From the NCBI RefSeq assembly GCF_054482595.1, contig NZ_CM137008.1: a stretch of DNA of 64,000 bases. One strand, given 5' to 3'. The notes under the pieces were generated by a model. It was not told where the DNA came from. It did no database searches and saw only the letters and a list, made by a program, of their open reading frames with translations. Below, one piece after another: positions 8,305-11,209 of the stretch (positions are counted from its first letter, which is position 1; each line of letters opens with the position of its first letter). The position numbers were made by a program, and so were the translations under genes.

Positions 8305-9554
<1,250 letters not shown>

Positions 9555-9731
9555 TAAAGTAAGTAACTGGTTAATTTACATTCTGGTCGCGTGCGCAAAT
9601 ACGCTTTTCCTCACACAGTTGTCAAGTGTTACGTTTAGATAATTGCTATCCGGAAAAGCATCTGCTATTTATAGCGGCCTCATTTTTCCCCCGAACATGG
9701 GGATCGATAGTGCGTGTTAAGGAGAAGCAAC

Positions 9732-10187
9732 ATGCAAGAAGGGCAAAACCGTAAAACATCGTCCCTGAGTATTCTCGCCATCGCTGGGGTGGAACCATAT
9801 CAGGAGAAGCCGGGCGAAGAGTATATGAATGAAGCCCAGCTGGCGCACTTCCGTCGTATTCTGGAAGCATGGCGTAATCAACTCAGGGATGAAGTCGATC
9901 GCACCGTTACACATATGCAGGATGAAGCAGCCAACTTCCCGGACCCGGTAGACCGTGCAGCCCAGGAAGAAGAGTTCAGCCTCGAACTGCGTAACCGCGA
10001 TCGCGAGCGTAAGCTGATCAAAAAGATCGAGAAGACGCTGAAAAAAGTGGAAGACGAAGATTTCGGCTACTGCGAATCCTGCGGTGTTGAAATTGGTATT
10101 CGCCGTCTGGAAGCGCGCCCGACAGCCGATCTGTGCATCGACTGCAAAACGCTGGCTGAAATTCGCGAAAAACAGATGGCTGGCTAA
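9732..10187 (+). CDS. dksA: RNA polymerase-binding transcription factor DksA
   Basis: 151 aa from [20 protein letters not shown]4 zinc finger [27 protein letters not shown] ggag upstream. Confidence 0.93.
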
Positions 10188-10214
10188 TTACAGCCGTTCC
10201 ATCACGTTTACCAC

Positions 10215-10243
10215 AGGCGGGAAATGCTCCCGCCTTATTTTTT
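10215..10243 (+). terminator. Rho-independent terminator after dksA
   Basis: Hairpin aggcggga-aatgc-tcccgcct followed by tatttttt; read directly from sequence. Confidence 0.7.
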
Positions 10244-11150
10244 GTTCAAAGAGATGACAGACACACACTATATTGGCCGCTTCGCCCCCTCTCCTTCCGG
10301 CGAGCTTCATTTTGGTTCTCTGATTGCTGCGCTTGGCAGCTATTTGCAGGCTCACGCCCGACAAGGTCGCTGGCTGGTACGCATAGAAGATATCGACCCG
10401 CCTCGTGAAGTTCCCGGTGCCGCAGAAACTATCCTGCGCCAGCTGGAACATTACGGCCTGCACTGGGACGGCGATGTTCTCTGGCAATCGCAACGTCACG
10501 ATGCCTATCGTGAAGCACTCGCCTGGTTACATGAGCAAGGACTAAGTTATTACTGCACCTGCACGCGTGCACGTATTCAAAGCATTGGCGGTATTTACGA
10601 CGGTCATTGCCGGGAATTGCATCATGGACCAGGCAACGCCGCAGTGCGTATCCGCCAGCAGCATCCGGTCACCCAGTTTACAGACCTGCTGCGAGGCATT
10701 ATTCACGCCGACGAAAAACTGGCACGGGAAGATTTTATTATTCATCGCCGTGATGGTTTGTTTGCCTATAACCTGGCGGTGGTGGTGGATGATCACTTCC
10801 AGGGCGTGAGCGAAATTGTCCGCGGGGCAGATTTGATCGAACCGACAGTGCGGCAAATCTCGCTGTACCAGCTTTTTGGCTGGAAAGTGCCAGATTACAT
10901 TCATCTGCCGCTGGCGCTTAATCCACAAGGCGCTAAACTTTCCAAGCAGAATCATGCGCCTGCGTTGCCGAAAGGCGATCCACGCCCGGTACTAATCGCG
11001 GCACTTCAATTTCTGGGTCAGCAGGTAGAAGCACACTGGCAGGATTTCAGCGTCGAACAAATCCTTCAGTCAGCCGTCAAAAACTGGCGGCTTACCGCAG
11101 TGCCTGAGTCGGCAATTGTAAATTCAACATTCTCAAATGCGTCATGCTGA
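10224..11150 (+). CDS. gluQ: Glutamyl-Q tRNA(Asp) synthetase
   Basis: 308-aa ORF with class I aaRS HIGH-like motif ([15 protein letters not shown]); first ATG at 10224 lies in the loop of the dksA terminator; alternative ATG at 10254 (MTDTHYIGR) gives 298 aa. Confidence 0.85.
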
Positions 11151-11209
11151 GCTATGATTAGCCGCTATTTTTTTGTCCTGAATGATGTTTGACACTACCG
11201 AGGTGTACT

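Follow-up and report, generated by a model that had tools for sequence, protein, structure and literature searches.

The in-frame AUG in the loop of the dksA terminator is not the start codon of gluQ in Escherichia coli

The hairpin and T-run between dksA and gluQ (positions 10215-10245) very probably constitute a leaky intrinsic (Rho-independent) terminator of dksA, in which the AUG of the loop is not used and GluQ starts at the ATG at 10254. The in-frame ATG in the loop is an accident restricted to Escherichia, and is not the GluQ start. A detailed account of this arrangement was published in 2012 (Caballero et al. 2012, BMC Microbiol 12:226, PMC3542578), and three genome-wide data sets have since confirmed it again.

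The dksA-gluQ locus and its hairpin

The DNA analyzed in the current study (the window) is a stretch of 64,000 nucleotides, in which the locus under study corresponds to the sfsA-dksA-gluQ-pcnB region of E. coli. A 301-bp probe from the locus was 99.7% identical to strain XH990, and gave matches in 5,424 of the 5,426 complete E. coli genomes. The genes dksA and gluQ (also gluQRS or yadB) share one reading frame, with the TAA of dksA (10185-10187) lying between them, 66 nt from the gluQ start. The features discussed here are as follows.

9732-10187, + strand: dksA coding sequence, 151 aa (ORF list; RefSeq annotation mapped to the window)
10215-10235, + strand: terminator hairpin, 8-bp stem and 5-nt loop AATGC (sequence, folding, terminator scan, conservation)
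10224-10226, + strand: loop ATG, annotated start of the 308-aa form, not a functional start
10224-11150, + strand: longest gluQ ORF, 308 codons, opened by the loop ATG (ORF list)
10236-10245, + strand: U-tract TATTTTTTGT (terminator scan; Term-seq 3' end at 10239)
10236-10253, + strand: AT-rich leader of 18 nt without a Shine-Dalgarno (SD) motif, from the hairpin to the true start, which is also the terminator tail
10254-11150, + strand: gluQ coding sequence as translated, 298 aa (PGAP, PDB 1NZJ/4A91, Edman, N-terminomics, INRI-seq, conservation)

The stem begins 27 bases after the dksA stop codon. Its arms, AGGCGGGA (10215-10222) and TCCCGCCT (10228-10235), pair with each other and enclose the loop AATGC (10223-10227), and the terminator scan reported 8 pairs (6 of them GC), a 5-nt loop and T at 8 of the next 10 nt. 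When 91 nt of RNA were folded, both the MFE and the centroid structure contained the hairpin (z = -2.45), which by itself has a predicted energy of -14.5 kcal/mol. The pattern GGCGGGA-N3-6-TCCCGCC occurred once in the window and in none of 100 shuffles. Because the hairpin is conserved and coincides with a mapped RNA 3' end (both described below), it is real and lies far beyond chance. The earlier note had described this hairpin, with its T-run and with the loop ATG as the first in-frame ATG of gluQ, accurately to the base according to both sequence and folding; the next in-frame ATG is at 10254-10256. A REP-like repeated element was also considered for the hairpin, and was ruled out by the uniqueness of the motif within the window.

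The same arrangement was described in Shigella flexneri by Caballero et al. (PMC3542578), who reported that the loop (the 'bulge') of the terminator separating dksA from gluQ-rs carries the first predicted AUG, and that a second in-frame AUG follows 27 nt after the loop AUG and has no obvious SD. The locus is the one analyzed here, in a genome that is nearly identical, and no substantive difference from the window was found.

Two further observations were made in the vicinity. A second terminator-like match, the hairpin CTGCTATTTATAGCGG followed by CCTCATTTTT (9662-9687), lies 48 nt 5' of the dksA ATG. A 3' end classed as 'orphan' by Term-seq, MG1655 160652(-), falls within it at window position 9684 (48,011 reads, one condition). 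The hairpin may represent an attenuator in the dksA leader or the end of an upstream transcript. On the other side of gluQ, the start of pcnB in RefSeq is an ATT (window 11210-11212; locus L001, position 2311), whereas the ORF list gave a TTG at 11189. This ATT corresponds to the known non-canonical AUU start of poly(A) polymerase I.

Termination and read-through

In the Term-seq data of E. coli K-12 (Adams et al. 2021, PMC7815308), an RNA 3' end was detected at MG1655 160097(-), which direct sequence mapping placed at window position 10239, four bases into the U-tract. The average read count of this 3' end (3,097,035) is among the largest listed, and direct RNA-seq coverage over 800 nt was 250 upstream and 62 downstream of it. 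With bicyclomycin the coverage was unchanged (250 upstream, 72 downstream). The site had a Rho score of 1.16 ('No') and an intrinsic terminator score of 7.47, where a score of at least 3.0 suggests intrinsic termination (PMC7815308). A GC-rich stem-loop followed by a U-rich tract, an in vivo 3' end, independence of Rho and evolutionary maintenance, four features expected of an intrinsic terminator, were found at this site.

In S. flexneri, dksA and gluQ-rs are co-transcribed from the dksA promoters; gluQ-rs lacks a separate promoter, and activity was absent when the dksA promoters were missing (PMC3542578). The published lacZ fusions, which are transcriptional, gave 10-fold higher expression for gluQ when the intergenic region was left out, and mutations that disrupt the stem raised downstream lacZ more than 2-fold (PMC3542578). 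Terminator-disrupting mutations, one of the checks proposed in the earlier note, had accordingly already been published. That note had also supposed, as one alternative, that gluQ expression depends on read-through of the terminator with the start codon sequestered in the structure. Dependence on read-through is borne out by the lack of a separate promoter, by the fusions and by the fall in Term-seq coverage; sequestration of the start codon is not, as the loop AUG is neither the start codon nor conserved.

The 3' end at 10239 could alternatively be a processing product, formed if transcription continues past the site and exonucleases then trim the RNA back to the stable hairpin. The mapped end lies just 4 nt past the stem, which implies at least some trimming; ends produced by intrinsic termination are usually found 7–9 nt past the stem. 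However, intrinsic termination is commonly followed by the trimming of a few U residues, and the approximately 4-fold drop in coverage across the site is insensitive to bicyclomycin. Moreover, stem mutations and deletion increase the output of a downstream transcriptional reporter, and the anatomy of the site is that of a canonical hairpin with a U-tract. An origin of this end by processing rather than termination is considered very improbable.

Intrinsic termination with partial read-through is the preferred reading. Most transcripts from the dksA promoters end in the U-tract near 10239, and the RNA that reads through, roughly a quarter of the coverage, is the only gluQ mRNA. The leaky terminator and the poor ribosome-binding site of gluQ together would keep GluQ-RS far below DksA, although both genes are expressed from the same promoters.

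An internal gluQ promoter was also considered and rejected. The sole promoter-like match (10245-10274, 9/12) would start transcription 3' of the ATG, and such a promoter is also contradicted by the published S. flexneri fusions (PMC3542578).

Start codon of gluQ

Edman degradation of S. flexneri GluQ-RS gave the sequence TDTQYIGRFAP, corresponding to initiation at the second AUG and a protein of 298 residues (PMC3542578). The sample was C-terminally tagged protein from T7-driven overexpression, with the intergenic region kept in the construct, and the method reports the major species only. The protein encoded in the window differs at residue 5, which is His (MTDTH) instead of the Gln (MTDTQ) of S. 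flexneri. In the TRAINSPOTTER N-terminomics data of E. coli K-12, b0144 is represented by the peptide MTDTQYIGR, which retains the initiator Met and is labelled 'N-terminal truncation (10aa)', from 308 to 298 aa (PMC13245402 Table S1). The tables of that study contain no row for the annotated b0144 start, and gluQ is absent among the co-expressed proteoforms. Both peptides fit a start at 10254; N-terminal evidence, the other check that had been proposed, was thus also in print.

Initiating ribosomes point to the same codon. INRI-seq is a cell-free form of Ribo-RET performed on synthetic mRNAs, and the gluQ template contains the hairpin as well as both ATGs (PMC9825163). At the annotated start (160112), the table lists five zeros with the flag FALSE, where the columns were taken as five samples by analogy with Table S3; in the table of alternative starts, the in-frame ATG at +30 nt has a peak of 49.6 with the flag TRUE, and was called in two of five samples (PMC9825163). 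For in vivo Ribo-RET, the tables that cite the data of Meydan et al. contain zero at both gluQ starts, which is uninformative because gluQ is poorly expressed, and the preprint of Meydan et al. does not mention gluQ. A literature search for a follow-up paper on the translation of gluQ-rs found none.

The crystallized protein (1NZJ, 4A91) is the 298-aa form, homology to GluRS begins at residues 17–19 of the 308-aa model, and in each of the four E. coli records inspected, PGAP has gluQRS begin with the second ATG. A scan with one genome per species yielded 80 Enterobacteriaceae loci, and 82 sequences were compared. An ATG was present at the position aligned with 10254 in every one of them (82/82), always five codons before the invariant YIGRFAP. 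Conservation, an N-terminal peptide and an initiation peak were therefore all found for the ATG at 10254, and only an SD-like motif was absent. Translation from 10254, the first alternative of the earlier note, is confirmed by Edman degradation, N-terminomics, cell-free Ribo-RET, the crystallized protein, PGAP and the universal conservation of the ATG. The two alternatives of that note are not mutually exclusive, as gluQ both starts at 10254 and depends on read-through for its expression.

The SD of the 10254 start, which had been called weak, is indeed so: its duplex with the anti-SD has a predicted energy of -1.7 kcal/mol, compared with -9.2 kcal/mol for dksA. No SD-like complement was found in any of 81 orthologous leaders between -20 and -1 of the gluQ ATG (window 10234-10253), all being weaker than -3 kcal/mol, and the AT fraction of the spacer had a median of 0.69 in the orthologous leaders, compared with 0.43 in the coding sequence. 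Judging from these alignments, SD-less initiation appears to be a conserved property of gluQ. The poor ribosome-binding site and the AT-rich leader probably set the low translation level of GluQ-RS.

It was also considered whether initiation is dual, with the loop AUG serving as a real second start, either weakly or only upon melting of the hairpin by heat or by a passing ribosome or helicase, or through cotranscriptional initiation before the 3' arm is made. A 308-aa isoform would then be coupled to the folding of the terminator. The loop bases are predicted to be unpaired (P = 1.00), the 5' arm carries an SD-like GGCGGGA (-6.3 kcal/mol with the anti-SD) at a plausible spacing, and the in-frame loop ATG is close to fixation in E. 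coli; moreover, the methods applied to date are not sensitive to a minor species of a scarce protein. On the other hand, neither a peptide, nor an Edman signal, nor INRI-seq reads were found at the loop codon, and the SD-like bases are themselves part of the 8-bp stem. Opening the region from -18 to +12 would cost 17.2 kcal/mol around the loop ATG, compared with 7.8 kcal/mol around the second ATG, where much of the pairing involves dksA coding sequence and would be disrupted by translating ribosomes. The abundant terminated transcripts end 15 nt after the A of the loop AUG, so that initiation there would lead to non-stop translation and would be expected to be counter-selected. The ten extra residues would also lie outside the conserved fold.

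Conservation likewise argued against a function for the loop codon. The 75 loci with the hairpin contained 27 distinct loops, and ATG occurred only in AATGC (one loop observed, compared with 0.75 expected for uniform base frequencies), so that an ATG inside the loop is what chance would predict. An in-frame loop ATG was confined to E. coli, E. albertii and Escherichia sp. E1V33. In Escherichia sp. MOD1-EC7003 (L005), the loop is the same and a 1-nt deletion in the tail places its ATG out of frame, while the ATG is absent from E. whittamii (L006, loop AATAC) and from the divergent 'E. coli' isolate AF16 (L003, loop ATTAC). In E. fergusonii the terminator is kept and the loop Met is missing (PMC3542578), and among the loci compared the loop ATG was absent from all genera outside Escherichia. 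Seven species have an in-frame stop codon two to five codons 5' of the conserved ATG. The loss and frameshifting of the loop ATG together with these upstream stops indicate that there is no coding constraint on the ten-codon 'extension'. Within E. coli, 4,887 of 5,424 genomes carry the loop ATG in an identical 60-nt context, which says little at such divergence. The loop ATG at 10224 thus showed neither conservation among orthologs nor coding constraint, and neither an N-terminus nor a signal from initiating ribosomes. We infer that the loop AUG is selectively neutral. Dual initiation is regarded as highly unlikely, and the coupling of gluQ translation to terminator folding through the loop AUG, which the earlier note had raised, is unsupported.

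On the read-through mRNA, ribosomes initiate at the AUG at 10254, situated 18 nt 3' of the hairpin, where the leader is AT-rich and unstructured and lacks an SD. The AUG in the loop is a bystander, in frame by accident and chosen by gene callers since it opens the longest ORF.

Two other routes to initiation at 10254 were considered. Termination-reinitiation from dksA is unlikely, as 66 nt and a stable hairpin would lie between stop and start. A GTG-initiated ORF of 57 codons in the +1 frame (10084-10257, + strand) overlaps the end of dksA, and its TGA overlaps the gluQ ATG (ATGA). Translational coupling through this ORF was rejected. Since the second codon of gluQ varies (ATGTCT, ATGAGC, ATGCCT and others), the ATGA overlap is not conserved and was judged to be due to chance.

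Conservation of the hairpin, related systems and annotation

A GGCGGG...CCCGCC hairpin was found 10–35 nt 5' of the conserved ATG in 75 of the 82 sequences, with a median energy of -16.5 kcal/mol. The GGCGGG/CCCGCC core was invariant in the 75 sequences and in 50 distinct variants of the hairpin, while the flanks diverged freely. With an invariant core, the stem offers little covariation. Compensatory changes were observed beside it, namely an apical A-U to G-C change (four distinct variants) and basal changes of A-U to U-A and of A-U to C-G.

The same hairpin (GGCGGGAG...CTCCCGCC) occurs in Enterobacter, Lelliottia and Yokenella just 10–12 nt from the gluQ ATG, in a zone about 35 to 10 nt 5' of it (loci L030, L039, L040, L042, L043, L052, L053, L055-L057, L060, L069-L072, L080, L081 and L083). 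The U-tract of these loci is poor, e.g. GTTACCGTTGAT; several have no more than three T in 8, and L071 (GTAACCACAACT) has one T in 8. From the sequences, efficient intrinsic termination would be doubtful in these lineages, in which the hairpin is conserved nonetheless, and termination may not be its whole function in the Enterobacter clade. Two further types of locus were noted. A diverged hairpin, CGGGGA-aaat-TTCCCG, is present in L032, L033, L041 and L079 (Phytobacter, Kosakonia sp. S29 and Enterobacteriaceae), and L046, L049, L051 and L074 (Kosakonia and Enterobacter sp. Bisph1) have a second, stronger GC-rich hairpin further upstream and a longer dksA-gluQ spacer.

The hairpin might also act post-transcriptionally on the read-through mRNA or the dksA mRNA, for example by tuning SD-independent initiation at 10254 (as a standby or positioning element), by protecting the 3' end of dksA mRNA from exonucleases, or by binding a protein. 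Such a role would add to the terminator function and not replace it. Pointing in this direction are the invariance of the core between freely diverging flanks, the constant position of the hairpin 10–35 nt from an SD-less ATG, and its retention in Enterobacter, Lelliottia and Yokenella with a poor U-tract and a 10–12-nt spacer. In addition, Caballero et al. observed that the intergenic RT-PCR product changed 20-fold with growth phase, and raised a bound factor as a possibility (PMC3542578). However, conservation would be expected of any GC-rich terminator stem, since single changes weaken it. An Rfam E-value scan of positions 9400-10500 found no family at the hairpin, and only one spurious, sub-threshold snoRNA match inside dksA, and the riboswitch search of Caballero et al. 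was negative (PMC3542578). The sequence upstream of the hairpin is not conserved between genera, so that there is no conserved antiterminator; neither a riboswitch, nor an attenuator, nor an RNA thermometer was recognized in this region. A second role of this kind is considered possible, if rather unlikely.

The more specific proposal, that the invariant hairpin has a conserved post-transcriptional role across the Enterobacteriaceae, either in determining how strongly SD-independent initiation occurs at the gluQ AUG 10–35 nt downstream or as a growth-phase-responsive element for read-through or binding, is considered improbable. If true, it would explain why the hairpin is retained in Enterobacter-type lineages with a poor U-tract. 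In a weaker variant, the loop AUG may support rare initiation in Escherichia that is coupled to the folding of the terminator.

Leaky intrinsic terminators within operons are also known for rpsU-dnaG (T1 of the rpsU-dnaG-rpoD operon) and recA-recX, both cited by Caballero et al. (PMC3542578). Their organization resembles that of dksA-gluQ: the upstream gene is strongly expressed and has an intrinsic terminator behind it, the mRNA of the downstream gene arises solely by partial read-through, and the ribosome-binding site of that gene is weak or unusual. Shared promoters thereby yield a large, fixed expression ratio. The genes are different, and no in-frame AUG in a terminator loop is known to have confused annotation in these two systems. 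The presence of an AUG and an SD-like GGCGGGA within a stable hairpin is superficially similar to RNA thermometers and translational riboswitches. In contrast to those systems, translation does not start at the sequestered AUG, neither a conserved alternative structure nor an Rfam match was found, and the loop sequence is not conserved.

The annotation of gluQ is still divided. In NC_000913.3 (K-12 MG1655), b0144 (159186-160112, 308 aa) starts at the loop ATG, with 160112 corresponding to window position 10224, and an N-terminomics table of 2026 lists UniProt P27305 at 308 aa (PMC13245402), whereas the PGAP-annotated E. coli genomes inspected use the second ATG and 298 aa. As a consequence of the K-12 start, the Term-seq table places the dksA 3' end within gluQ ('internal'), at a distance of 15 nt from its start codon, and studies of translation initiation sites class the true start as 'alternative'. 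The 308-aa model of b0144 (NC_000913.3, UniProt P27305) should be shortened to 298 aa.

The finding has little importance beyond annotation hygiene, and the outdated 308-aa annotation is the only actionable point. The locus is a documented example of how one set of promoters serves both an abundant regulator, DksA, and a scarce tRNA-modifying enzyme, GluQ-RS, by means of a leaky terminator and an SD-less start.
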